Source: an uncultured Bacilli bacterium (GTDB lineage: Bacteria; Bacillota_I; Bacilli_A; RF39; UBA660). Taken from it: a stretch of DNA of 64,000 nt. Made by a program: the position numbers and the translations under genes. Shown piece after piece: positions 3,660 to 64,000 of this stretch. The stretch spans positions 30,823 through 94,822 of the forward strand of contig CAKOOO010000001.1 in assembly GCA_934098665.1 (NCBI GenBank). Direction: 5' to 3'. Each line of letters begins with the position of its first letter. Position 1 is the first letter of the stretch. The notes beneath the pieces are model-generated. The model was not told the DNA's origin, did no database searches, and worked only from the letters and a program-made list of their open reading frames with translations.

Positions 3660-4771
3660 TATTTATTTCCTTCTTCATTAATTTGTTTCATAGTTTTAAT
3701 TTCAAGATAATAATGTGTTAAACGAGAAGCAAGTTTAATATTGCTTCCTTTTTTACCAATAGCTGCGGAAAATTCATCATCACCAACAACTACTAAAGCT
3801 TTCTTTGCTTTTTCATCAATTATATTAACTATTGCATTTCTCGCAGGAACCATAGCATTTTTAATAAATGTAGCAGGATCTTCACTATATAAAACTAGAT
3901 CTATTTTTTCACTACCAAGTTCCTTTAAAATGCCTGCAATACGGCATCCTTTTTCACCAATACATGAACCAATTGGGTCAATTCTTTCATTATTTGAATA
4001 AACACAAACTTTACATCTAACACCCGGTTCACGAACAACTTGATATATTTCAATATCTCCATTAATAATTTCTGGTATTTCTTGTTCAAATAATCTTTTT
4101 ACAAAACCATAATGTTTTCTTGAAAGCATAATAACTGGTCCTTTAACTCCTAAAGTAACTTTAGTTAAATATACTTTAATATTTGAACCCATAACAATTT
4201 TTTCACCAGGAATTATTTCACTTTTAGGAAGCATTCCACGAGTTCTACCAAGGTCAATATAATAATTTCTTTGATCCTCTAAAGCAACCATACCAATCAT
4301 TACTTCGCCTTCTTTATCACTAAACTCATTAATAACGCTTTCTTTTTCAGCTTCTCTAATTTTTTGAGTTAGAACTTGTTTAGCAGTACCCGCAGCAACA
4401 CGACCAAAATCTTTTGGCGTAACTTCTTTTTCAATAGTGTCACCAACTTTAGCTTTAGGATCAATTTTTATCGCATCCTCTAAAAGTATTTGTGCGTCAA
4501 TATTTATTTCTGGTGGAATAACTATTTCATTACCTTCTTCATCAACACTTTCTTTTCCTTCATCAATTTCAGGAACAACTACTAAATAAGAGTAAACTTT
4601 AATATCGCCAGTTTCACGATTAATTTTAACAATTACATTTGTTTTAGAGTCAAAATTTTTCTTATAAGCAGTAGTAAGTGCAAGTGAAAGTCCATCATAA
4701 ATAACATCTTCACTGATATTTTTTTCTTTTGTAACAAGCTTTACAGCCTTAACTAATTCATTTGCATTCAT
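3659..4771 (-). CDS. nusA: transcription termination/antitermination factor NusA
   Basis: 370 aa with an N-terminal NusA domain, S1 and two KH regions. Lies between rimP and ylxR. Confidence 0.95.
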   Translation of the reverse strand: MNANELVKAVKLVTKEKNISEDVIYDGLSLALTTAYKKNFDSKTNVIVKINRETGDIKVYSYLVVVPEIDEGKESVDEEGNEIVIPPEINIDAQILLEDAIKIDPKAKVGDTIEKEVTPKDFGRVAAGTAKQVLTQKIREAEKESVINEFSDKEGEVMIGMVALEDQRNYYIDLGRTRGMLPKSEIIPGEKIVMGSNIKVYLTKVTLGVKGPVIMLSRKHYGFVKRLFEQEIPEIINGDIEIYQVVREPGVRCKVCVYSNNERIDPIGSCIGEKGCRIAGILKELGSEKIDLVLYSEDPATFIKNAMVPARNAIVNIIDEKAKKALVVVGDDEFSAAIGKKGSNIKLASRLTHYYLEIKTMKQINEEGNK

Positions 4772-5091: not shown

Positions 5092-6918
5092 TTATTTTAC
5101 TGTTATGTCCATATTTTTTTCTTTATTTTTAATATTTAATAAATAAACCACCATAAAGGGCATTGGAAATATTATTGGCATAGCGTATCTAAAATAGGTA
5201 TTCGCAGGTCCCACTACGCAAAAAAGCAAAGAAATTATCATTGGAAGTAAAATAATTAAATACTTATAATTTTTATTTTTAATTAAATAAACTACCATAA
5301 TAATTAAAAGCCATACATTAAAGCCAATGCTTACGAATAAACCAAGCACTGGAACTACCCTATAAATTTCTGCATATGAAGATAAAAACTTTCTTAAAGA
5401 ACCTAATTTATTATAATGATAATTCACTAAATTATCTTCACATATTTTATTATAATATTTTGAATATATATACCAGTTTGTATCTCCTGGGTCAAAATAA
5501 CCATATATATTATTTAAAGTAGCATTTAAATATAAATAAGGATGATAAATTAAACCTTTAACCCATACTTTAAAATAAGATTTTAAATCGGATTTTGTAT
5601 AATATATATTAAATGTTCCTTTAACTGGGTCAGATAATGTTGGTTTATAATTTTTTTTAATTTTATCATAATCAAGTATTTTACTTATTATAATTTTATC
5701 ATTTTCAGATATATCTTCTTCTTTATATTTTATAAGTCTTGCAGTTTGCTGAAATGGAATTGATAAAACTTCTCTTATACTTGTTGGTGTAACACCAAGT
5801 TTTGGAAGTAATATATTTGTATAAGAATAATATATTACAAATAATGACATAGTTAAAATAGTTAAAATTTTTCTATTTTCCTTACTATAAATAAGTGCAA
5901 AAGGAAAAATCATTAATACTAAAAATATACCATTATTTCTAAATAAACATATAAATAAAAGTATTATAAAAAGTAATATAATATTTTTAATAGGAATTTT
6001 TTTATTTTTATAATTATCTATAAACTCTACTAAAGATATTATTAACCATATAATTAAAGTTGTATAAATAGTATCTTTATTTGTATTAACTAAATAAAAT
6101 GAAAAACATGGCATTATTATATATAAAATAAGCATTAAAAATAAATATTTATTAGAAATATTTTTCTTTTTTAAATAAGTAATTGTATAACATAATGTTA
6201 ATGTTAAAAATAAACCTTGAAAAAAAGTATATATAAATAAACCAAAATTATCATTTATTAAAAGTCTTCCTAGTTTTATACTCCATCCTAAAAGCATTGT
6301 ATGTAATACTGGATGATGATTTGTAATATGTACATTTGGATTAATTTGAATTGAATAACTTGTATATTTATTTGGTACATTAAATGCTTGCTTTATTTGA
6401 TTTGAGGGATCTGGTGATAATACTGCAGGATAAAAAGCAATATAATAAATGCTATAAAATATACATAAAATGATAAAACTTACTAAAAATGGATGTTTAT
6501 TAAAATATCTAATAAATTTATTTTCTTTTATATCAAAATCATTTTTATAGATTATAATAAGTTTTTTAGCTAAAGAATATATATTTATAATTAAATAATA
6601 TATTCCTATAAATCTTATTATAGTAAATAAAAACATAAAGTTTTTAAATAATATATTTAAACTAGATATATCTCTATAGCTTTGGCCTATTAAAACACAT
6701 AAACTAAAAAATAAACATAAATATTTATCACATTTATTTAAATTATTTTTATCTTTTTTAAATATAAAATAAAATATACATGAAAAAATAATAATTAATA
6801 TAACTAATTTAATACTAAATATACTTTGACCATAATATATTTTTTTATATGGTAAAAATAATGCTATACTAGATAATAAACTTATTAATATATTTATAAA
6901 CTTCTTTTTCATATCCAT
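5092..6918 (-). CDS. polytopic integral membrane protein, possibly a GT-C-type glycosyltransferase
   Basis: 608 aa with many hydrophobic helices throughout and one larger loop region. No catalytic motif recognised by eye, so the function is a guess. Confidence 0.55.
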   Translation of the reverse strand: MDMKKKFINILISLLSSIALFLPYKKIYYGQSIFSIKLVILIIIFSCIFYFIFKKDKNNLNKCDKYLCLFFSLCVLIGQSYRDISSLNILFKNFMFLFTIIRFIGIYYLIINIYSLAKKLIIIYKNDFDIKENKFIRYFNKHPFLVSFIILCIFYSIYYIAFYPAVLSPDPSNQIKQAFNVPNKYTSYSIQINPNVHITNHHPVLHTMLLGWSIKLGRLLINDNFGLFIYTFFQGLFLTLTLCYTITYLKKKNISNKYLFLMLILYIIMPCFSFYLVNTNKDTIYTTLIIWLIISLVEFIDNYKNKKIPIKNIILLFIILLFICLFRNNGIFLVLMIFPFALIYSKENRKILTILTMSLFVIYYSYTNILLPKLGVTPTSIREVLSIPFQQTARLIKYKEEDISENDKIIISKILDYDKIKKNYKPTLSDPVKGTFNIYYTKSDLKSYFKVWVKGLIYHPYLYLNATLNNIYGYFDPGDTNWYIYSKYYNKICEDNLVNYHYNKLGSLRKFLSSYAEIYRVVPVLGLFVSIGFNVWLLIIMVVYLIKNKNYKYLIILLPMIISLLFCVVGPANTYFRYAMPIIFPMPFMVVYLLNIKNKEKNMDITVK

Positions 6919-6947
6919 AGTATATCACCTTAATCATTTATTAGCAA

Positions 6948-6971
6948 TTTAAAAAATAGTCCTTTGACTAT
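6948..6971 (-). terminator. rho-independent terminator of surface-protein gene A1
   Basis: Minus strand reads ATAGTC-AAAG-GACTAT followed by a T-run, starting 4 nt after the stop at 6975. Confidence 0.6.
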
Positions 6972-6974
6972 CTT

Positions 6975-9128
6975 TTAATTTATTACAAAAGGATTAGTAT
7001 ATGAGCCATCTCCTGAAGATATTTCAGTGCCAGGTTTGATGGAAACGACCGAGCGCACACCCCCCGAGTAGTTCACGATGCTGTAGTAGCTCCACCCAGC
7101 GGAGTTCACTGCCCTGACGACGGCGCTGTAGATGCTGTTAAAGTAGTAGGGAGAACCAAGCCATACATATTGTCCATTATTAAAGTAATGACTACTTCCA
7201 TAATTTGCTAACCTTAATTCTGGTGCTGTTAATAATCCTATAGGATATTTTAATTGTGCTTTTGGATTATTTACACTAAATCTATCTGTTTCATTTGCAC
7301 ATGCCAAGTTTTTATTATTTTCATCATAGTTTTTAAATTCTAATGAAGTCGTTGTACTTCCGCCGTTTGGATTCCATCCATTTGAAGATAAATTAGTTAT
7401 GGTTCTATCATTACAAAATACTGTATCTTCTAGTTTACCTTCATATTTATCTTTTATATTTTTTTCATACCAACTATCTATATATGCTTTTATTGTACTA
7501 TCTTTTGTATTTACATCATTATCATATAGCATTTCATTTAAGGCATCATCTACAGATTTTCCATTTGTTAGCGTTATGTAATATGGAGTACCACCATCAA
7601 TAGCATATACATAATAAATTGATGTACAGCTATTACCATTTGTTAAGCATGTATAATGGTGTGTATTTACATTTGTTTTATTTGTACTCCATGTATCTGT
7701 ATTTATTGTCGTAGTATTAGTTAATGTATATGTTCCATTTGCATATGTAAATGATGAACCAAATACATAATCACTTCCATTGTCTGTTCCATCTACATCA
7801 CCATTTGACAGTGAGTAATAATAAATGTAATATCCACTATATCCCACTATATGATATACATTTGTACATGTTTCAGTTGTAGAACTACTATTACATGTGT
7901 ATTTTCCTACTAATGTACTTATATTTGAATCTGTTACATTTAATGTTGTCGCATTTGTTAATGTGTATTTTTTAGTGCTGTTATCATATGTTACTGCATC
8001 GGCATAAGCTTTTGTTCCACTGAAATATGTACTATTTACTATTGTTTTAGTTGAGTACGTATATACTTTGTTTTCATTATACATATATCCTACATATGCT
8101 AGTGAATTATCATTACTATTAAATTTACTTGTTCCTATTTGTGAATCTGTTCCTGTATTATTACATGTTTTTATTATGCTATTTACTTTTCCAAAACTAA
8201 ATATTACATTATTTCTTGTATTATTTCCACTCGTCCATGAATATTTTCTTGTAAAAACTATCTTTATTACATCTGATGTTGTTAAATCTTTAAAACTTAT
8301 TTGTCCTGTTATTATTCCCGTAAATTTACCTTGACTTACATCATCTTTAAATATTTCTACATTTATGTTATTTAAAGAATCATACATTGATAAATCAAAA
8401 TTTAAAACGTAGTTTCCATTTGATGGTGCTGTAAATGATATTGTTGAACTATTTGTTCCAGTATTTGTACTTGTCCATGTTTTATTTGTTTCATCAAAAT
8501 TATATGAATATGATGTATCATTAATTAAGTTTGAATATTCTGACTGATTTAATGATTCTGAAGTATAAAAATCTTTTTGAACGCCATTATATACTATTTT
8601 AACTCCACCGGTATCTGTAGTTCTTACTATTTTCCAACAATAGTTTGCAAAAAGTACATTGTTATTTTCTACATTGCCAGTATAGTAATATATATTATTT
8701 GCATATGTTGTTGTATCACCATAATCTGCTCCATTATATAGTTTTACAAATTCATCACCATTATTATATCTTTTCTTAACTATACCATATAAAGATGTAT
8801 CTTCCTTATAATCAAAATACAAATAGCATTTATCACTTCCTATAAATGAAAATGATACTGTTCCTGTAGAGTTATCATAACTAGTTACTTGTCCATTATT
8901 TTCACAATGCGTTTTTTCTTCATTTAATATATAATCACCTTTTGGTATATCTTTTGAACTAGACTTGGTATAATCAGTTGCACCATTTTCTTTTATCATT
9001 ATAGATAATTTTTCTTCTTTAATAGGTTTATTTTTACTCAAATTATTTTGTTTTAATTTATAGGTTAAAATTAAGCTTAAAACACCTACTATTAAAAATA
9101 CGAACAACACTATTTTTTTCTTTTTCAT
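6975..9128 (-). CDS. membrane-anchored variable surface protein, paralogue A1 (717 aa)
   Basis: N-terminal signal-anchor MKKKKIVLFVFLIVGVLSLIL. Shares a Cys-containing N-domain with the 24032 and 42194 genes and a ~600-aa core with the 30206 gene. C-terminal WLGSP...GGVRSVVSI...GDGSYTNPFVI module. RBS AAGAGGAG. Confidence 0.85.
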   Translation of the reverse strand: MKKKKIVLFVFLIVGVLSLILTYKLKQNNLSKNKPIKEEKLSIMIKENGATDYTKSSSKDIPKGDYILNEEKTHCENNGQVTSYDNSTGTVSFSFIGSDKCYLYFDYKEDTSLYGIVKKRYNNGDEFVKLYNGADYGDTTTYANNIYYYTGNVENNNVLFANYCWKIVRTTDTGGVKIVYNGVQKDFYTSESLNQSEYSNLINDTSYSYNFDETNKTWTSTNTGTNSSTISFTAPSNGNYVLNFDLSMYDSLNNINVEIFKDDVSQGKFTGIITGQISFKDLTTSDVIKIVFTRKYSWTSGNNTRNNVIFSFGKVNSIIKTCNNTGTDSQIGTSKFNSNDNSLAYVGYMYNENKVYTYSTKTIVNSTYFSGTKAYADAVTYDNSTKKYTLTNATTLNVTDSNISTLVGKYTCNSSSTTETCTNVYHIVGYSGYYIYYYSLSNGDVDGTDNGSDYVFGSSFTYANGTYTLTNTTTINTDTWSTNKTNVNTHHYTCLTNGNSCTSIYYVYAIDGGTPYYITLTNGKSVDDALNEMLYDNDVNTKDSTIKAYIDSWYEKNIKDKYEGKLEDTVFCNDRTITNLSSNGWNPNGGSTTTSLEFKNYDENNKNLACANETDRFSVNNPKAQLKYPIGLLTAPELRLANYGSSHYFNNGQYVWLGSPYYFNSIYSAVVRAVNSAGWSYYSIVNYSGGVRSVVSIKPGTEISSGDGSYTNPFVIN
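7041..7151 (-). other. GC-rich NNC-codon patch (candidate DGR variable region) in A1
   Basis: Hand count gives about 58% G+C in a ~25% G+C gene. 23 of 37 codons end in C (TAC, AAC, AGC, ATC, GCC, GTC, CGC), which is atypical of the surrounding AT-ending codon usage. Encodes PYYFNSIYSAVVRAVNSAGWSYYSIVNYSGGVRSVVS. Confidence 0.55.
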
Positions 9129-9174
9129 AAACTCCTCTTTTTGCCCGTAAATACGGCATTGAGTTTTTTTATAT

Positions 9175-9299
9175 TAGATACATTTAAGAAAATACGAACG
9201 CCTATTTACGTACCTTACATCTTAATAATACACTATTTTTTATAAATTTTAAAGTCTAAATAACGATTTTACGCTATATAATTTTCTTAAATGTATCTA
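9175..9299 (-). promoter_or_regulatory. invertible promoter cassette 1 (promoter faces gene A1: ON)
   Basis: Perfect 19-bp inverted repeats: TAGATACATTTAAGAAAAT at 9175-9193 and its reverse complement at 9281-9299. The 87-bp core carries, on the minus strand, TTTAAA (9253-9248), 17 nt, then TATTAT (9230-9225). The homologous core is inverted at loci 3 and 4. Confidence 0.8.
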
Positions 9300-9330
9300 C
9301 TAAAGGAAAATACGAACAAGGTAAATACTG

Positions 9331-9359
9331 GGTTTGTTTAAGATAAACCTATTTTTTTT
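9331..9359 (+). terminator. weak plus-strand hairpin + T-run just outside cassette 1
   Basis: GGTTT(G)-loop-(T)AAACC followed by TATTTTTTTT. Conserved at loci 2 and 4 with G-U-compatible changes that pair only in plus-strand RNA. Confidence 0.4.
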
Positions 9360-9382
9360 AATTTACAAAAAAAATGATGAAA

Positions 9383-11407
9383 TTATTCATCACATGTAGG
9401 GCATTTAACTTCACCATTTTTTATTACTAATAAATCATTACATTTTGGACATTTATCCCCTGTTGGTTTATACCATGATGCATATTTACATTTAGGGAAA
9501 TTATCACAACCATAAAATTCTTTACCTTTTTTAGTTTTTTTAACTATTATATTTCCATTACATTTTGGACATTTACAAATAATTTCTTTTTCTTCTTGTT
9601 TTTCATTTTTCTTAATATATTTACAAGTTGGGAAATTAGAGCAAGCTACGAATGTTCCATATTTTCCTTTTCTATATACTAAAGGGTTTCCACATTCAGG
9701 GCATATTTCACCAGTTTCTTCAGGCTTTTTCTTTTCCATATTTTTAAATGCATTATCGACAAGTGGTGAAAAATTGTCATAAAACTCTTTAAGCATTTTT
9801 TTATAGTCTTCACGTCCTTCGGCAATTTCATCTAAATCTTTTTCCATATTTGCTGTATATTTAACATTTACTATACTTGAGAAAAATTCTTGTAATTTAT
9901 CTGTTGTTTCAAAACCTACCTCTGTTGGAATAAACTTTTTATCCTCTAAAGTAACATATCCCCTATCTTTAATAGTTGAAATAATTGTTGCATAAGTTGA
10001 GGGTCTTCCTATACCCAGTGACTCTAACTCTTTAATAAGTGAGCTTTCTGTAAATCTTGCTGGTGGTTTTGTAAAGTGCTGAGTTTTAGTTATGTCATCA
10101 CTTACTATAATACCAGCTTTATAATTTTTAAAATCTGGTAATACTGTATCTTCTTGATCTTCGTAATCACTATATACTTTTAAATAACCATCAAAAGTAA
10201 GCACACTACCATTTGCTTTAAAACCATAGTCATTATTATCAAGAAGTACTGTAGTTGCATTAAATTTAGCATCTGCCATAAGTGAAGCTAATGCTCTATA
10301 ATAAATTAATCTATAAAGTTTATATTCATCTGGTGATAAAAACTTTTTAATTTTATCTGGTTCATAATTTATATTTGTAGGCCTAATACCTTCGTGAGCA
10401 TCTTGAACGTTTTCAGTTTTTTTGCTCTTTTTAACATAACCTACATAATTATCTCCAAACTTTCCCTTAATAAAGTTAAATGCAGAAGAAGTAAATTCAT
10501 CAGAAAGTCTTATGCTATCTGTACGCATATAAGTAATAAGGCCATGAAAACCATCCTCAAGTTCAATACCCTCATAAAGTTTTTGAGCTATTTTCATAGT
10601 TTTTGAAGCAGGATATCCAAGTTTATTTGAACTAACTTGCTGAAGTGTAGATGTTTTAAATACTTCTTTAGCAATTCTTTTCTTTTCTTTTTCTTCGACA
10701 CTTTTAATTGTAAATGAATTTGATAAACTATCAAGCACTTTATTTGCATCACTTTCAGTATTTATTTCAATAGCTTTTTCTTTATATGTTTCAAGGCTTG
10801 CTTTAAATTCTTTGAAGTCTGCCTCAATAGTCCAATATTCTTTAGGAATAAAAGCAAGTATTTCTCTTTCTCTATCTACAATAAGTTTTAAGGCAACAGA
10901 CTGAACTCTACCCGCGGATTTTCCTGATGTTTTTGACTGCATAACTTTACTTAATCTAAAGCCAATAATTCTATCTAAAAATCTTCGTGCTTCTCCAGAG
11001 TGAACTAAATTCATATCAATTCTTCGAGGATTTTTTAAAGCCTTTAAAACTACATCTTTAGTAATTTCATTAAATACAATTCTATCATATTTTTCATCTG
11101 GAACTTTAAGTTCATCATATAAATGCCATGAAATTGTTTCTCCCTCACGGTCTGGGTCGGTTGCAAGATAAATATGATCTGCTTTTTCAATTAAATCTTT
11201 TAAATATTTTACATCTTTCTTTTTTCCTTTAATAATTTCATAATTAGGTTTAAAATCATTTTCAATATCAATTCCTAGACCATATTTTCCAGATGTGGCT
11301 AAATCTCTAATATGACCTTTTGAGGATACTACTGTATAATTATCACCTAAATACTTAGAAATAGTTTTACATTTTGCGGGGGATTCTACTATAATAATAT
11401 TTTTCAA
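9383..11407 (-). CDS. topA: DNA topoisomerase I
   Basis: 674 aa with a TOPRIM N-terminus (IIVESPAKCKTI), a type IA core and C-terminal Cys4 zinc ribbons. Confidence 0.95.
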   Translation of the reverse strand: MKNIIIVESPAKCKTISKYLGDNYTVVSSKGHIRDLATSGKYGLGIDIENDFKPNYEIIKGKKKDVKYLKDLIEKADHIYLATDPDREGETISWHLYDELKVPDEKYDRIVFNEITKDVVLKALKNPRRIDMNLVHSGEARRFLDRIIGFRLSKVMQSKTSGKSAGRVQSVALKLIVDREREILAFIPKEYWTIEADFKEFKASLETYKEKAIEINTESDANKVLDSLSNSFTIKSVEEKEKKRIAKEVFKTSTLQQVSSNKLGYPASKTMKIAQKLYEGIELEDGFHGLITYMRTDSIRLSDEFTSSAFNFIKGKFGDNYVGYVKKSKKTENVQDAHEGIRPTNINYEPDKIKKFLSPDEYKLYRLIYYRALASLMADAKFNATTVLLDNNDYGFKANGSVLTFDGYLKVYSDYEDQEDTVLPDFKNYKAGIIVSDDITKTQHFTKPPARFTESSLIKELESLGIGRPSTYATIISTIKDRGYVTLEDKKFIPTEVGFETTDKLQEFFSSIVNVKYTANMEKDLDEIAEGREDYKKMLKEFYDNFSPLVDNAFKNMEKKKPEETGEICPECGNPLVYRKGKYGTFVACSNFPTCKYIKKNEKQEEKEIICKCPKCNGNIIVKKTKKGKEFYGCDNFPKCKYASWYKPTGDKCPKCNDLLVIKNGEVKCPTCDE

Positions 11408-30141: not shown

Positions 30142-30205
30142 ATCTATATTATAACTAAATTTTATTAAAAAAAATACTACTTTTTTTACATTAAGTAGCA
30201 TTTAA

Positions 30206-32689
30206 TTACTCTATTACAAAAGGATTTGTATATGAGCCATCACCTGATGATATTTCAGTTCCAGGTTTGATGGAAACGGCAGAGCGCACACCCCCCTCGC
30301 GGCCCACGTTTTCGTTCCAGCTACTGGAGCTCACTCCCAAGACGGCGGAGGTGTTAATGCCGAATCTGTAGGGAGAACTAAGAAAAACATTTTGGCCATT
30401 ATCAAAGTAATGACCATTTGAATTTGAATATCCCGCTAAACTTAATTCTGGTGCTGTTAATAATCCTATAGGATATTTTAACCTTGCTTTTGGATTATTT
30501 ACACTAAATCTATCTGTTTCATTTGCACATACTAAACTTTTATTCCTTAGACTATAATTTTTAAATTGTAATTCAGTTGTTGTACTTCCTCCATTTGGAT
30601 TCCAACCATTTTGTGATTCATTATCCATTGACCTATCATTACAAAATACTGTATCTTCTAGCCTATCATCATATTTATCTTTTATATTTTCTTCATACCA
30701 ACTATCTATATATGCTTTTATTGTACTATCTTTTGTATTTACATCATCGTTATATAACATTTCATTTAAAGCATCATTTACTGATTTTCCTCCAGTTAAG
30801 GTTATGTAATATAACGTTCCATTAGAATCATAATATACATAATAAACGGAGGTACAGCTATTACCATTTGTTAAACATGTATAATGATGAGTATTTACAT
30901 TTGTACTACTTGTACTCCATGTATCTGAATTTATTGTTACTGTATCAGTTAATGTATATGTTCCATTATATGTAAATGATGAACCAAATACATAATTACT
31001 TCCATTATCTGTTCCATCTACATCTCCTTTTGACAATGAGTAATAATAAATATAATTTGATTTATATCCTACTATATAATATACATTCGTACATGTTTCT
31101 GTTATAGAACTACTACTACAAGTATATTTTCCCACTAATGAACTTATATTTGACCATGTTACATTTAATGTTGTTGCTGTTGCACTATCAAGTGTATATT
31201 TACTCATACTACTATCATATATTACTGCATCGGCATATGCTTTTGTTCCATCGAAATATTCATTATTTACTATTGCTTTACTTGAAGGTGTATATACTTT
31301 GTTTTCATTATACATGTATCCCACATATGCTGGTGAATTATAATTACTATTAAATAGAGTTGTTCCTATTTGTGAATTATCTCCTATATTATTACATGAT
31401 TTTATTATACTATTAACTCTACCAAAACTAAATATTACATTATTTCTATCTCCTATCGTCCATGAATATTTTCTTGTATATATAATTTTTATTACATTTG
31501 ATGTAGTTAAGTTTTTAAAAACAATTTGTCCATTATCTGTTCCTGTAAATTTTCCTTGACTTACGTTATCTTTAAATATTTCTACATTTATACCATATTC
31601 ATAATCATTCATTGATAAATCATAATTTATTACATAATCTCCATTTGATGGTGCAGTAAATGATATTGTTGAACTATTTGTTCCAGTATTTGTACTTGTC
31701 CACATTTTATTTGTTTCATCAAATGTATATGGATATGTAGCATCATTACTTAAATTTACATATTCTGACTGACTTAATGACTCTGAAGTATAAAAATCTT
31801 TCTGTACACCATTATATACTATTTTAACTCCACCAGTATCTGTAGTTCTTACTATCTTCCAGCAGTAGTTTGCAAATAAAACATTATTATTTTCTACATT
31901 GCCATCAAAATAATATATATTATTTGCATATGTTGTTGTATCGCCATAATCTGCTCCATTATATAGTTTTACATATTCATCATTTGCATTATATCTTTTA
32001 GCAATTGCATTATATAAAGTTGGTTCTAATTCTTCAACTGTACAACTATTATTTTCTACATATATTGTTCCTGTAAACGATTTATCTACTAGTTGTGACT
32101 GGTCTAAATTTAAATTATAGTATCTTCCTGTTATATTTATATCTTGTATAGTACTTGTTCCACTACTTTTAATGGTGGCTCCTTTTACAAGTATTTTTTT
32201 TGCTCCTACTGTAGATGTTTTTGGTGTCCATGAGCTATCATAAGCAAAATTAGTTTCATTTACATAACTATTTGTTCCACTTGGGCTTTCTACTTGCATC
32301 GTAATTTCTTTTGTAGCTCCACTTGTTACATTTACTGTGTTTCCATATATTTCACTATCAAGATTATATTCATATACTACATCATATGTACATGTTGTTG
32401 TTACGTTTGGTGCTCCAGTTAAATTAACAGTAAGCGTTGCTGTATTTTCTGCGGCTAGTCCAGTATTTCCCTTAAACATACCACTTTTAGGTACTATTAC
32501 ATTTAAATTTGCACTTGTGGCAATAAAAGAGGTATTACCTATATCATTTGCATAAATATTTACCGCTACTTTATTTTCTAAATTTACTGTAAACATCCCA
32601 AAATATGCAAATGATGCCCCAATTAATATTAGAAGTAATACTAAACATGCTATAGCACTTTTTATAGTTATTTTCTTTTTATTTTTCAT
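30206..32689 (-). CDS. variable surface protein, paralogue A2 (827 aa) with a different N-terminal module
   Basis: Residues ~224-827 are closely similar to A1 residues ~104-717. The N-terminal ~220 aa are unrelated to A1 and begin MKNKKKITIKSAIACLVLLLILIGASFAYFG, resembling a TasA/camelysin SipW-type signal peptide. Confidence 0.85.
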   Translation of the reverse strand: MKNKKKITIKSAIACLVLLLILIGASFAYFGMFTVNLENKVAVNIYANDIGNTSFIATSANLNVIVPKSGMFKGNTGLAAENTATLTVNLTGAPNVTTTCTYDVVYEYNLDSEIYGNTVNVTSGATKEITMQVESPSGTNSYVNETNFAYDSSWTPKTSTVGAKKILVKGATIKSSGTSTIQDINITGRYYNLNLDQSQLVDKSFTGTIYVENNSCTVEELEPTLYNAIAKRYNANDEYVKLYNGADYGDTTTYANNIYYFDGNVENNNVLFANYCWKIVRTTDTGGVKIVYNGVQKDFYTSESLSQSEYVNLSNDATYPYTFDETNKMWTSTNTGTNSSTISFTAPSNGDYVINYDLSMNDYEYGINVEIFKDNVSQGKFTGTDNGQIVFKNLTTSNVIKIIYTRKYSWTIGDRNNVIFSFGRVNSIIKSCNNIGDNSQIGTTLFNSNYNSPAYVGYMYNENKVYTPSSKAIVNNEYFDGTKAYADAVIYDSSMSKYTLDSATATTLNVTWSNISSLVGKYTCSSSSITETCTNVYYIVGYKSNYIYYYSLSKGDVDGTDNGSNYVFGSSFTYNGTYTLTDTVTINSDTWSTSSTNVNTHHYTCLTNGNSCTSVYYVYYDSNGTLYYITLTGGKSVNDALNEMLYNDDVNTKDSTIKAYIDSWYEENIKDKYDDRLEDTVFCNDRSMDNESQNGWNPNGGSTTTELQFKNYSLRNKSLVCANETDRFSVNNPKARLKYPIGLLTAPELSLAGYSNSNGHYFDNGQNVFLSSPYRFGINTSAVLGVSSSSWNENVGREGGVRSAVSIKPGTEISSGDGSYTNPFVIE
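30272..30373 (-). other. GC-rich NNC-codon patch (candidate DGR variable region) in A2
   Basis: Hand count gives about 62% G+C, and 19 of 34 codons end in C. Encodes PYRFGINTSAVLGVSSSSWNENVGREGGVRSAVS. It sits at the same position as the A1 patch, but the sequence differs and is 3 codons shorter. Confidence 0.55.
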
Positions 32690-59958: not shown

Positions 59959-60891
59959 TTAAATTTTACGATAGCATTTATTCATTAGAAAGTTCATAAT
60001 TTCATCATCAATGTCACTTTCATAATACTTTATAAGTAGATTTTTATATTCTGAAACTAAATTATCTGGTATAACTATTAAACCTTTTCCTTTGCTAATT
60101 AAATAATGATTAGCAAATATTACTGAAGTTCTTTTATTTCCATCAATAAACATTTGAGATTTAACTACATATAATAATAATTTAATACTTTTTTGAACAT
60201 CATCAATATCTAAACTAAGAATATTATTTAAATTATCTTTTATATCAGCCTCAATTGGAAGTTCAGGTGTCCAAGACGTACCACCAATTTTAACTGGAGT
60301 TGTTCTAAGACTTCCCGCTAAATAATAAAATCCTTCCTCAACAAATTTATTTATAGAACATAAAATATTATAATCAGTTTTACTTAAAATAACATTTTTA
60401 TTTAATATAAATTCCCAAGCGTGTTTTAAATTAACAACTTTTAATATATCATCAACAATCATATTATTTACTTTATTACCATTTATAATATTTTCTATTT
60501 CAGAAAGTGTTGTAGCAATTCCCTCAAGTATTGCTTGATTATAAATCGTATCTACTAAATGTTTTCTTGCAAAATCAATATTTTTAGCAACATCTAAAGG
60601 TAAATCTTCATCAAAATAATTTAGTTTATTTAATTCTTTTTCTATATTACGAATAGATTTTTTTAATGTTTTAGCTTTAATATTATTATTTAACACTAAA
60701 TTATATAATTCTTCTGTGTATTCACCCACATATTTTGTGGATTGTAAGCCATCCTCTTTTGTATGCAAATAGATATATTTTTTGCTATCTTTTTCTCTAA
60801 TTTCAATAGCTCCATATACAAGTTCATTAAGTAAAGTTACATATTGTCTTTTTTGATTCAATAAATTTAATATTTTTATTTGATTTTCCAT
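59959..60891 (-). CDS. Fic/Doc-family protein with a degenerate active-site motif
   Basis: Start taken at MENQIKIL (60891) after GGTGGTG. The C-terminal motif is QMFIDGNKRTSVIF; compare Doc HxFxDGNKRT, where His is replaced here by Gln. Confidence 0.6.
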   Translation of the reverse strand: MENQIKILNLLNQKRQYVTLLNELVYGAIEIREKDSKKYIYLHTKEDGLQSTKYVGEYTEELYNLVLNNNIKAKTLKKSIRNIEKELNKLNYFDEDLPLDVAKNIDFARKHLVDTIYNQAILEGIATTLSEIENIINGNKVNNMIVDDILKVVNLKHAWEFILNKNVILSKTDYNILCSINKFVEEGFYYLAGSLRTTPVKIGGTSWTPELPIEADIKDNLNNILSLDIDDVQKSIKLLLYVVKSQMFIDGNKRTSVIFANHYLISKGKGLIVIPDNLVSEYKNLLIKYYESDIDDEIMNFLMNKCYRKI

Positions 60892-60919
60892 ATCAACACC
60901 ACCGCTATCATTATACAAC

Positions 60920-60974
60920 AAAAAATAAAAAATGTGAAACTTTTTTAATATTTTTCTTATTAAAAGTTTCACAC
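60920..60974 (-). terminator. terminator hairpin, copy B (upstream of the fic-like gene)
   Basis: 12-bp stem TGTGAAACTTTT/AAAAGTTTCACA with the same loop as copy A, followed on the minus strand by a T-run. Confidence 0.55.
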
Positions 60975-60977
60975 TAA

Positions 60978-61178
60978 TTATCTTCGATATAAATTATATC
61001 TATATTCTCTTTCAGCCTCATGTTTTAAATAATTTGCATCTTTACAAATATCTTTCATAATTTTTTCTTTACTACAAATTCTATCTTCGCTTGCCTTAAA
61101 TTCTGCATAGATGTATATTCTTTTACAAGGAACCTCTAAACTATTTAAGGCCTCTTTTATAAAATTTAACATTACCAA
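60978..61178 (-). CDS. 66-aa hypothetical ORF (possibly a gene remnant)
   Basis: ORF with no convincing RBS. It is followed by terminator copy B, and the region upstream (61179-61551) is non-coding. Confidence 0.3.
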   Translation of the reverse strand: MVMLNFIKEALNSLEVPCKRIYIYAEFKASEDRICSKEKIMKDICKDANYLKHEAEREYRYNLYRR

Positions 61179-61551
61179 GTTTTAAAAGTAATACTATTAA
61201 ACTATTTAATATACTTTTTAAGAATATAAGGTTTACCAAATTTTCTTTTATTAAGAATCCTCTTTAATGTCCAATTCTTATTAAATGTTTAAAATCTAAT
61301 TTTAATACATTAAAAAACTTAGACATTTCTATCTAAGTTTAAAATTTTTTTTCGCTTTTAATTGCAGCTTGTACCACAGTTTAGTTCGGAATGCTTTGAT
61401 ATTTTTTTTCAACTAATTGACTTAACGTTTTTTCTTTTAAATTTTTTTATAAAAATAGGGCTCTATCCTAAAATAGACCCCTTACAAAAATGATTTAACA
61501 TTTTTTCCTTGCATAGATAATATATCATAAACATTTATCTATGTCAAACTA

Positions 61552-62541
61552 TTACTCCAAATTTTCTTTATAATTTTTCTCAATAATTTTATCAAAATAA
61601 TTATATATGGATTTCAATAGTCCATTATTATTATAGTATTTTCCATTCAAAATTATTCTTCCATAAAATAATTTTGTAATATCGTGTTTTACATTATTTT
61701 TTACGCCATCACTACTTACTATAATATTAAATATATATAAAGTATATGTAATTTGTCTTATTCTTGAATTAGAAAGTTTAGTATTTCTATTCTCTTTCCC
61801 AATATCACAATCCTTTAAATAATTAATAACTAACGTATCAGCTCTATGTGTATTGTCTTTTTTGTCTAGTTCACATAATACACAAGAATTATGAGCAACA
61901 GCATTTCTAAGTTTATTTACTTCTCTTAAAATAAATATATATTTATTATCGTCTAAAACATAATGTTTAGTAAAGAAATCAAAAAAATTAATCAATTCAC
62001 CAAATGTGATTATTTCAAGAAATTCCCAAATAGGTATATTTTCTATTTTAGTATCTTTATCTAAATCGTATTTAGAAAATATTTTTTGATAATACTCATT
62101 TGAAACTTTTTTTCTAATACTTTCATGCATTCTTTTAGGACGTTCCTTGTCATTAAAATCTTTTTTCAAATATAAATTAACAATTTTATAACCATCTTCT
62201 TCTGATATTTTCTCAATAGTATTTAGTATTCTTATTTTTAAATAATGTTCTATATCAATTATCATTTTAAATAATACTAATCTAGTTCTATAGTCTATAA
62301 TAGATAAATCTTTTAAATATGCAAAATCTAAATCTATATATTTTCCTTCAAGCTCACCACATTGATATTTAACAAAATTATTTTTATATGATGTTACATT
62401 ATAATAGTTATTATTCTCTTTTAAATATATTTCAGCATCTTGTTCTGAGTAACATTCAAATTTAATGTTTTTATTTTTCAAATAAGGAACCATATCAGAT
62501 ATTTTCATCATTGGTCTTAATATCAAAGTTTTATTATTCAT
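61552..62541 (-). CDS. Abi_2 (AbiD/AbiF-like) abortive-infection family protein
   Basis: Start taken at MNNKTLIL (62541) after AGGAGGG. Typical Abi_2 layout (...YLKENNNYYNVTSYKNNF..., IIDYRTRLVLFKMIIDIEHYLK, KLRNAVAHNS). Confidence 0.75.
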   Translation of the reverse strand: MNNKTLILRPMMKISDMVPYLKNKNIKFECYSEQDAEIYLKENNNYYNVTSYKNNFVKYQCGELEGKYIDLDFAYLKDLSIIDYRTRLVLFKMIIDIEHYLKIRILNTIEKISEEDGYKIVNLYLKKDFNDKERPKRMHESIRKKVSNEYYQKIFSKYDLDKDTKIENIPIWEFLEIITFGELINFFDFFTKHYVLDDNKYIFILREVNKLRNAVAHNSCVLCELDKKDNTHRADTLVINYLKDCDIGKENRNTKLSNSRIRQITYTLYIFNIIVSSDGVKNNVKHDITKLFYGRIILNGKYYNNNGLLKSIYNYFDKIIEKNYKENLE

Positions 62542-62652
62542 AATTACCCTCCTATTTGGATTTTTTAATAGATAATTATATTTTATCATAAATATTAATA
62601 TTTTTTTACTTTAGATACAAAAAAAACTGAGATTTTTTCCTACTACAATGGT

Positions 62653-63891
62653 TTATCTATGCATTCCATTATGTTCATTTGTTGGTAAAATCATATGATC
62701 AGAATACGTTCCATCATTTGATTGAAAATTATAATCTACTGGTTCTTTCATCATTTTTTCATACTCTTCTCGTAATGCTTGTAGTGAACCCTTTTCAGGT
62801 GAGTTTTGATTATTTATTTCTTTAGAATTACTATTTATTATTCCTTGTAATTCTTGCATGACATCTTTATTTAAACAAATATTATTTGGATCAATATTTA
62901 ATTGTAACAATTTACTTTTTAATTTTCCAACAATCGAATTAACAAATTCATAATCAACTCTTTGTATAGCTGATAATAAATAAGATACTCCTTGATAGTA
63001 TGAAACTTTATCTCGTTTGGCTTTATAGTAATCTTTACCACTATCATTCATCAAACTATCATCTACTAAATCTTTTGCAAAAACAGGGGTTATTCCATCA
63101 GATCTTACTGACATATTTGGGTGTGTATTAACCCAATCTCTTACAGACTCAACTAAAACTTGTGATACATTATCAGACATCAATCCTGTAAAACTTTCCT
63201 TGCCTTGTAGTTGTTTATTTTCTTGTGCATAGCCAATCCAATTATCAATATTATTTGTAAATTCGTGCGGTCTATTAATCTGACTAATTAATTTGGGATT
63301 ATTAATTGCAACTGCATTTAATACATCAATTGTATTTTTCAATTCATTTGAACTTGAATAAATAACAATAAAATCCTTTGGTCCTTGAATATGTGAGGTA
63401 TTAATTTTAAAATAAAAAGGTAATTTTCTATTTTCAAATTCTTTAATAAGTTTTTCACTAAATTGTGCTATCACTTTTGCATTTGCATTTATATAAAACC
63501 TATGACTAATCTCATTTTTCCCATATCCACCATTATTTGTTAATTGACTTGATTGAAAAGTATACCATCCTAACTGATTATTTGAAATTGGATTAGTATA
63601 TGTAGTATTTCCGTTTTCGTCTGTTTTTGTGATAGGTTTCATAGTATTAATTGCTTGAAAATGCTTTGAAGCACGATTAACAAATTCATTGATATAATCA
63701 AAATCTTGACTAGAACTTGCACTTTCTTTTGATGAATTTAAATATTGCTTAAATATGTTTTTTAAATGCTCAACATCACTATTTTGGTGTAATTGTGAAG
63801 TCATGTTTTGAAATTCTAAAATCATTTTTTTAACAAAATCTTCATTTACTGATTTGTTATTACTATTAATTAATTTATCTATTGTTATCAT
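62653..63891 (-). CDS. hypothetical protein, possibly HopA1-like effector-family fold
   Basis: Start taken at MITIDKL (63891) after GAGGTG. HRFYINANAKVIAQFSEKLIKEFENRKLPFYFKIN...DFIVIYSS resembles the HopA1-family core pattern. Weak call from memory. Confidence 0.35.
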   Translation of the reverse strand: MITIDKLINSNNKSVNEDFVKKMILEFQNMTSQLHQNSDVEHLKNIFKQYLNSSKESASSSQDFDYINEFVNRASKHFQAINTMKPITKTDENGNTTYTNPISNNQLGWYTFQSSQLTNNGGYGKNEISHRFYINANAKVIAQFSEKLIKEFENRKLPFYFKINTSHIQGPKDFIVIYSSSNELKNTIDVLNAVAINNPKLISQINRPHEFTNNIDNWIGYAQENKQLQGKESFTGLMSDNVSQVLVESVRDWVNTHPNMSVRSDGITPVFAKDLVDDSLMNDSGKDYYKAKRDKVSYYQGVSYLLSAIQRVDYEFVNSIVGKLKSKLLQLNIDPNNICLNKDVMQELQGIINSNSKEINNQNSPEKGSLQALREEYEKMMKEPVDYNFQSNDGTYSDHMILPTNEHNGMHR

Positions 63892-63899
63892 CTTACACC

Positions 63900-64000
63900 T
63901 CACATCTTATCAATATTTTCTAAAAAAGTATTTAATGATTTATACCACTCAAACATACCAAGTTTTCTATTTTGATATCTAATTAGTTCTTCTTCATTAT
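63900..64000 (-). CDS. hypothetical protein (C-terminal 33 codons; 5' end beyond window edge)
   Basis: Open minus-strand frame ...NEEELIRYQNRKLGMFEWYKSLNTFLENIDKM* runs in from the window edge. Its stop overlaps the next gene's RBS region. Confidence 0.35.
   Translation of the reverse strand, partial: NEEELIRYQNRKLGMFEWYKSLNTFLENIDKM

Follow-up and report, generated by a model that had tools for sequence, protein, structure and literature searches.

Gene A1 raises the question of how a stretch of codons near the end of a surface-protein gene in an AT-rich genome became GC-rich, and whether it is still being rewritten. The gene lies in a 64,000-nucleotide (nt) stretch of DNA from an uncultured Bacilli bacterium (GenBank assembly GCA_934098665.1, contig CAKOOO010000001.1, positions 30,823 to 94,822 of the forward strand), which was analysed as a whole and is referred to here as the window. 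A first reading of its letters, called here the original prediction, had singled out positions 7041-7151 as a candidate variable region (VR) of a diversity-generating retroelement (DGR). The cassettes of such elements contain a template repeat (TR) and a reverse transcriptase (RT); the GC-rich end of a variable region may be an initiation of mutagenic homing (IMH) element. Our analysis makes it likely that the patch, VR1, is a variable region written by a DGR and now orphaned and frozen.

6975..9128, minus strand: gene A1, 717 amino acids (aa), an open reading frame (ORF) with its translation, whose C-terminal domain carries the variable region
7041..7163, minus strand: variable region VR1, codons W656-S696, with a GC-rich core at 7041-7154; it aligns to the TR-homologous segment of intact cassettes
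7041..7067, minus strand: GC-rich IMH-like 3′ end of VR1, GGGGGGTGTGCGCTCGGTCGTTTCC; the copy in the second variable region, VR2, differs at two positions only

The composition of the patch proved to be as first described. It is 111 nt long with 58.6% GC, while the 64-kb window as a whole has 24.8% GC. The reading given for the minus strand, which is the coding one, is exact, and 23 of the 37 codons have the form NNC. A GC content of 0.62 per 100 nt was attained at only two sites of the window, 6978-7197 and 30203-30418. In the case of A1 codons 659-697, 24 of 39 were NNC codons, versus 41 of the remaining 678 (6%; Fisher p = 1e-17), and the GC content at third codon positions (GC3) was 0.85, compared with 0.11 in the remainder of the gene. 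The A1 protein starts with a membrane helix at its N-terminus, continues with a beta-sandwich domain in the centre and ends in the C-terminal domain with VR1, which occupies residues 656-696 of 717, i.e., the 3′ end of the ORF. The distance from SP to GVRS in VR1 is 29 codons, 15 of which have the [A/T/G]NC form expected from AAC template codons. Around them, the non-variable scaffold follows the pattern TGGCTTGGTTCTCCC..TT[TC]...GCC...GTCAGGGCAGTGAACTCCGCTGGGTGG...GTG...TCGGGGGGTGTGCGCTC, and the residues F, A, V, R, V, N-S, G, V and GVR are retained with the correct spacing.

The second GC-rich site of the window, on which the original prediction had made no remark, belongs to a paralog of A1.

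30206..32689, minus strand: gene A2, 827 aa, paralog of A1 (ORF; homolog-table entry P0012)
30272..30385, minus strand: variable region VR2, codons F769-S806, 60% GC, NNC-rich and aligned with VR1
30282..30296, minus strand: GGGGGGTGTGCGCTC at the 3′ end of VR2, found by a motif scan of the window

A2 has the same C-terminal domain as A1 and a different N-terminal region; the last 1.8 kb of the two genes are 84.1% identical (blastn, 1816 nt). VR2 takes the same position in A2 as VR1 in A1. NNC codons account for 20 of its 36 codons, versus 4% in the remainder of A2 (Fisher p = 7e-17). Its SP-to-GVRS distance is 26 codons, three fewer than in VR1, and because of this difference in length one template could not have written both regions. 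Since a DUF218 gene begins 4 nt past the A2 stop codon, there is no room for a cassette or a hairpin behind A2. Both variable regions end alike. The 15-mer GGGGGGTGTGCGCTC is present near the end of VR1 at 7051-7065, and its only other exact copy in the window is that at 30282-30296; with up to three mismatches allowed this remained the sole other match, where none is expected by chance. In both regions GGGGGGTGTGCGCTC is followed by GTTTCC, at the same position as the end of the TR/VR homology in active relatives, which stops at the equivalent GGTGGCGTGCGCCCTGCA(A/G)TTTC. The GC-rich 3′ end of VR1 is thus a candidate IMH-type element, as had been suggested, although IMH and IMH* can be told apart only against a TR; what stood of that suggestion is the match in position and sequence, and we use the term IMH-like in this sense. 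An inverted repeat of at least 6 bp was not found within 30 nt 3′ of VR1 or VR2.

The probable origin of the patch emerged from its relatives. A search with A1 returned 2928 homologs at E <= 1e-3, nearly all in gut metagenome assemblies, which places A1 in a large family of DGR target proteins from gut bacteria. The family consensus is WLGSPxxFxxxxAxVxxVxxxGxxxxxVxxxxGVRP; only this segment is hypervariable, while the rest of the alignment is well conserved. Between WL.SP and GVRP, the GC content was 0.33-0.64 in 58 homologous loci (at least 0.42 in 53 of them), compared with about 0.27 directly upstream. Because the raised GC content recurs in these loci, the patch is a trait of the whole family. 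Family members that stand next to a cassette share 44-63% identity with A1, and VR1 aligns with the VR and TR of such relatives. In the cassette of locus L013, the TR lies 0.6 kb downstream of the VR and encodes WLASPNNFNNNNANVRMTNSDGLTNNNVNNSMGVRPS, and an Avd-like ORF comes next. The order in L074 is target, TR, Avd and a 512-aa RT with the motifs IGAMISQ...YMDD; here TR and VR are identical at 96 of 119 positions, and the mismatches fall almost all at a template A. More cassettes (L094-L115) were found via RT look-ups, sited by housekeeping genes. The loci L104-L109 serve as a positive control for activity in this clade: the RT protein is identical in six places, the VRs are of three kinds, and all 23-27 mismatches within the repeat are on template adenines.

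When a profile of the template peptides was used as query, 37 short ORFs were found; their consensus is WL.SPNNFNNNNAN..NVNS.GNLNNNNVNN.NGVRP. The asparagine codons of the templates coincide exactly with the variable columns of the family. Because of this coincidence, and because VR1 keeps the scaffold together with 15 codons of the mutated-AAC type, we regard it as established, with high though not full confidence, that a DGR wrote the VR1 patch. The proposal of a DGR variable region is therefore upheld by the codon signature and by homology to the VRs of intact cassettes with TR, Avd, RT and adenine-specific mismatches; as to the idea of an element acting in trans, the evidence leans against current activity, since the patches are invariant (see below).

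Four side observations were made on the cassettes of this clade. In the L094-L103 cassette (VR at L094:3924-4049, TR at 4361-4483), the RT is intact and the VR was identical in 10 samples; this VR exceeds its own TR by one codon, and the element appears to be a stalled DGR. The regions L112:324-446 and L113:324-443, from two NCBI genomes, belong to the same RT protein and hold different VRs that are one codon apart in length, which suggests that the AAC runs of templates change length, perhaps by slippage. A C-terminal MutS_I domain is frequent in the RTs of this clade (L074:9267-10805 and many RT clusters); Wu et al. 2018 described weak MutS_I similarity in three RTs only (PMC5758913). Two cassettes, in the neighbourhoods of L094 and L114, adjoin a chromosomal mutS.

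No cassette was detected near A1. In relatives, the spacer, hairpin, TR, Avd and RT follow the target gene; in the window, this site is a short gap.

6919..6974, minus strand: gap of 56 nt between A1 and the DUF6020 gene, at the site of spacer, hairpin, TR, Avd and RT in relatives

Apart from a promoter-like site (6947-6919), the only feature of the gap is a 6-bp inverted repeat, which is AT-rich and has a T-run. No terminator was called in it, and no similarity to TR, Avd or RT was detected there. A third copy of either patch was absent from the 64-kb window, as judged by an ungapped scan, blastn-short, sensitive local alignment and the 15-mer with 3 mismatches. The window contained no Asn-rich template-like frame and no conserved TR leader, and tblastn of the family RT and Avd queries gave no match in it at E <= 1e-3. 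The absence of TR and RT from the window, noted at first sight, was thus confirmed by alignment scans, tblastn, and leader and frame scans. Flanking sequence, taken from contigs of other samples, came to about 13 kb in total (left, about 7 kb; right, about 6 kb); its genes are all of housekeeping or defence type, and it contains no cassette. Of the 1352 RT clusters, the best 120 included none on the 175,345-bp contig of the window, and the four RT clusters that were looked up all came from other species and other samples. None of the 37 template-like short ORFs carried the scaffold of VR1 or VR2. A scan with the pattern GTGNNCNNCNNGGGGGGTGTGCGCTC gave two chance matches in GC-rich metagenome-assembled genomes (species-representative genomes) and none in viral contigs or Joint Genome Institute (JGI) metagenomes; this result carries little weight because the source strain is evidently outside those collections.

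The lack of a cassette is common in the family. Among the 48 family loci with at least 1.5 kb of downstream sequence, an adjacent TR was present in only 2, and RT fragments were present in three loci; loss of the cassette is therefore the rule. These fragments, which cover RT residues 78-165 and 427-498 but not the catalytic core, stand directly after family members, at L023:2245-2706, L027:1912-2373 and L051:9050-9202. The family members beside them retain GC-rich VRs, and these cassettes read as decaying.

In all intact cassettes, we observed a 10-bp hairpin about 45 nt past the stop codon of the target, with the form N6-GAAA, a loop of ACCC or ATCC, and TTTC-N6′. A second conserved element, an inverted repeat, lies directly upstream of the TR.

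L013:4526-4549, L074:8514-8537, L104:4228-4251, L111:2716-2739 and L114:5191-5214: post-target hairpin
L013:4943-4975 and L074:8545-8580, also in the spacers of L094 and L104: element upstream of the TR, GGATTAAAC…GTTTAATCTAGGATT

The stem of the post-target hairpin covaries: of its 10 pairs, 6 show changes on both sides, and paired cells make up 87%, versus 23-49% when the partners are slid. The stem is broken in the L094-type cassette and degenerate in the remnant of L118. The family hairpin GAAAACCCTTTC had no copy in the window and none near A1 or A2. The upstream element is often called as the leader MFNLGLC of short "TR ORFs".

The features of A1 and its relatives were compared with the DGR of Bordetella phage BPP-1, which comprises the target Mtd, TR, Avd and bRT together with an IMH and a downstream hairpin. 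As in BPP-1, the target ORF carries its variable segment at the 3′ end, a GC-rich stretch ends the TR/VR homology, the templates of relatives are AAC-rich with adenine-specific substitutions, and relatives carry Avd and an RT with IGxxxSQ and YMDD motifs. Unlike BPP-1, the setting of A1 is chromosomal, the gene order in relatives is target-TR-Avd-RT, and the window itself is without any machinery. In BPP-1, a hairpin or cruciform with a stem of 7-10 bp and a 4-nt loop, placed 4-34 bp past the VR, is required for retrohoming (Guo et al. 2011, PMC3240598); A1 has no hairpin at this distance, and the intact cassettes of the clade have instead the covarying ACCC-loop hairpin described above. Because an active relative is also without a hairpin directly after the VR, the classical hairpin criterion may not fit this clade. 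A phage origin of the target family was rejected, since 2.9 million viral contigs yielded no relative.

To judge the present state of the patches, we compared strains. Exactly the same A1 protein is encoded on 7 contigs, and exactly the same A2 protein on 6, in each case from at least 5 samples including the window's own assembly. Members of the A1 90% cluster differ at residues 20 and 272 only, outside VR1; members of the A2 90% cluster show up to 12 changes, all at residues 109-412, outside VR2. As judged from consensus assemblies, VR1 and VR2 were each invariant in every contig found, and hypervariability confined to a VR was not seen. Identical patches in related strains, which the original prediction had put down as evidence against itself, are therefore what was observed, while the same genes vary elsewhere. 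We consider it probable that VR1 is currently static or orphaned.

What varies at the A1 locus is the whole allele. Strains with the same InfB protein and flanks 97-100% identical carry different alleles at this locus, L116:3731-5899 (722 aa) and L118:3638-5776 (712 aa). The identity of such alternative alleles is 0.43-0.93 along the whole gene, with sharp boundaries at the gene ends. The flanks of L001 and L002 are about 1.2% diverged from the window but share with it a 4.3-kb tract (about 6200-10500) with zero differences, which spans A1, the start of the DUF6020 gene and part of topA and suggests that the A1 allele was recently imported by recombination. Since the patches are invariant and whole alleles differ, this species varies the protein by allele exchange and not by rewriting of the patch. 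The alleles differ in age: the VR of L118 is fresh (56% GC, NNC 20/38) and that of L116 is decayed (39.5% GC, NNC 5/38, with TAT, GAT and AAT codons), while the VRs of the window, with a GC3 of 0.75-0.85, are still fresh. Past the stop codon of the L118 allele, 146 nt (L118:5777-5922) match the spacer behind the target gene of the L013 cassette at 85-88% identity, and this directly shows descent of alleles at the A1 locus from cassette-linked copies. The same spacer remnant was found behind the cassette-less members L014, L023, L027, L031, L039, L065 and L067, and also in L032, where the contig ends too early to judge the cassette.

Based on these data, the following course of events is proposed. 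The RT of a DGR would once have copied an AAC-rich (Asn-codon) template repeat into cDNA, placing random bases opposite template adenines. The cDNA would then have replaced the last, presumably ligand-facing, segment of the surface protein A1, leaving a GC-rich scaffold with interspersed NNC codons inside a gene of 25% GC; the paralog A2 would hold a second VR of this kind. The writing machinery would since have gone from this region of the genome, with each VR fixed in the sampled strains. Strain variation at the A1 locus would arise by recombinational replacement of whole alleles, each with its own old or young VR, one of which still has a piece of cassette spacer attached. In this scheme we infer both that retrohoming was the source of this particular patch and that rewriting has now ceased.

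Several observations weigh against such cessation. The search reached across the window and about 13 kb of flanks, while DGR targets more than 100 kb away are known (PMC5758913, PMC8144416). Both patches are fresh (GC3 0.75-0.85), unlike the decayed L116 allele, and because they are undecayed, the rewriting would be evolutionarily recent. VR1 and VR2 share the GC-rich 3′ end, and its two differences would fit template adenines. The strains that share VRs are very closely related to one another and have mosaic tracts of recombination, so the time of proven stasis is short, and minority variants are hidden by consensus assemblies. Finally, the post-target hairpin lies about 100-130 nt from the VR end; since it is more distant than the BPP-1 hairpin and has another loop, its role in homing is one that we infer.

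Some of these observations support the main alternative, namely that the patches are live remote targets, rewritten in trans at a low or conditional rate by an intact cassette of the same chromosome more than about 10 kb beyond the window. The original prediction had likewise assumed that the cognate element acts in trans. The idea has precedent: in the chromosomal DGR of Treponema denticola, TvpA is accompanied by seven remote target genes, other chromosomal DGRs have targets more than 100 kb away (PMC5758913), and remote targets are missed in fragmented assemblies (PMC8144416). As in T. denticola, paralogous surface-protein genes with VRs are dispersed in the chromosome here with no RT beside them, and the cassettes of this clade are also chromosomal. 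However, the remote VRs of T. denticola match a single TR except at adenines, while for A1 and A2 no TR is known, there are two VR lengths, and both VRs are invariant between strains. Rewriting in trans would thus need two templates, or one template whose AAC runs slip in length; the L112 and L113 VRs, one codon apart under the same RT, indicate that a length change may occur under a working DGR, but VR1 and VR2 are three codons apart. Moreover, the invariance of VR1 and VR2 in all contigs and samples found is in contrast to the three VRs in six places of the cassette-linked relative. The hairpin of every intact cassette is absent here, each TR found in the family directly follows its target, the predicted template scaffold is in no called short ORF of the protein database, and none of the best 120 RT clusters is on the contig of the window. 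Since remote targets are known for chromosomal DGRs, trans action keeps a share of the probability; the evidence leans against current activity, and we consider live remote targets unlikely.

A second alternative is that recombination or gene conversion brought in the GC-rich segment from a foreign homolog of higher GC content, or that the segment arose by selection for certain residues (Tyr, Ser, Gly, Val), with a retroelement never involved at A1. Exchange of whole alleles is clear at the A1 locus, and the A2 variants are mosaic. The protein P0002 likewise joins an A1-like N-terminal region (about 277 residues, read by eye) to a different C-terminal end, which is identical to that of P0125. 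However, recombination moves a VR but leaves its origin unexplained. The composition changes at the very points where the TR/VR repeats of intact cassettes begin and end, and the variable positions of the family are the template Asn codons. Selection for residues would favour TAT, AGT and AAT, the codons of this genome, over TAC, AGC and AAC, and the L116 allele shows what AT-adapted coding of the segment looks like. An origin of the patch without any retroelement is therefore very improbable. The weakest proposal, an embedded nucleic-acid element (structured RNA, regulatory site or mobile-element scar) that has nothing to do with protein diversification, is suggested by the sharply bounded compositional island with its G-run but can practically be dismissed, as no Rfam family was detected on the patch at E <= 1 (two weak matches beside it are far under the gathering scores), no inverted repeat of at least 6 bp is present in or just past it, the reading frame is maintained, and the same codon positions are affected in two paralogs and dozens of homologs with the protein scaffold F, A, V, V, G, V, GVRP conserved.

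The probably frozen, DGR-written region was also considered with respect to its protein context. It had been proposed that A1 resembles the DUF1566/Lcl-like class of targets and has a C-type-lectin-like fold. Pfam gave no match on A1, A2 or the C-terminal 187 aa even at E <= 10, NCBIfam gave none for A1 or A2, and the identity with DUF1566 was rejected on this ground. The template peptides of the family match another domain, DUF6273 (Pfam PF19789, gathering score 23.5 bits), scoring 26-30 bits at its C-terminal end (profile positions 129-171 of 172). A1 itself had no match to DUF6273; a version of A1 with the Asn residues restored scored 16.5 bits (E = 0.008) and the cassette-linked L094 target scored 22.2 bits, both below the 23.5-bit cutoff. 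Faecalibacterium prophages are reported to have DGR targets with DUF6273, in which the VR lies at the C-terminus of the domain (PMC11792537). The targets described here are similar in that the template peptides match this C-terminal end and in their habitat in gut Firmicutes. They differ in that A1 and A2 are below the Pfam threshold for DUF6273, are cellular and located among housekeeping genes, and have other N-terminal and central domains.

The AlphaFold model of A1 had a mean predicted local distance difference test score (pLDDT) of 87.7, with a helix at residues 6-30, beta-rich middle domains and an alpha/beta C-terminal part. The idea of a C-type-lectin-like fold gained no support from it: the Foldseek matches of the full-length model were dominated by the central jelly-roll domain, and the model of the C-terminal part only, with a pLDDT of 40, was too poor for fold comparison. 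A sequence search of the PDB with A1 returned no relative. The best structural matches of the central domain (residues ~185-320, about 8170-8575) were CBM35, CBM86, CBM29 and other jelly-roll lectin-like domains.

The surroundings of both genes indicate that the window is ordinary chromosome. A1 is found among infB, nusA, the DUF6020 gene, topA and a sulfatase-family gene, and A2 between the DUF218 gene and glmS; the sporulation genes SpoVIF and CotZ are nearby, and these, together with the names of the samples, indicate a Firmicute of the human gut that is AT-rich and forms spores. The right end of the window and the sequence just beyond it (59959-64000 and L090:4845-9892) contain a defence- or toxin-type cluster (Fic, Abi_2, HopA1, AAA_33). 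A RhuM-family gene at the end of the Hadza contig L002 (at about 18.5 kb of the window) suggests a strain-variable island there.

As far as its sequence tells, A1 is in kind a standard DGR target. In AT-rich genomes, the composition signal, GC together with NNC codons, reliably marks sequence that a DGR has written and needs no special tool; VR1 and VR2 would escape DGR finders that start from the cassette, because no RT or template is nearby. A DGR-type patch alone does not imply ongoing hypermutation. Only about 4% of family members keep an adjacent template, so in gut surveys target families can far outnumber active DGRs, and calls of activity need comparisons of strains or reads. The diversity of the surface protein here seems to be stored in fixed alleles that are moved by recombination. 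Decayed RTs, spacer remnants and broken hairpins were all found in relatives, and the hairpin is intact in cassettes that show or are able to show activity, disrupted in the static cassette and absent in the window. It is conceivable, and we put it forward tentatively, that in this AT-rich lineage of gut Firmicutes DGRs act as transient writers: a cassette would write a VR and then be lost, the frozen VRs would form a library of alleles and paralogs exchanged by homologous recombination, and the post-target hairpin would decide whether a copy can be rewritten. The conserved hairpin is thus a testable candidate for what renders a copy rewritable in this clade. While the DGR target itself is ordinary for gut Firmicutes, this picture of writing, loss and recombination, together with the candidate competence hairpin, is the noteworthy part.

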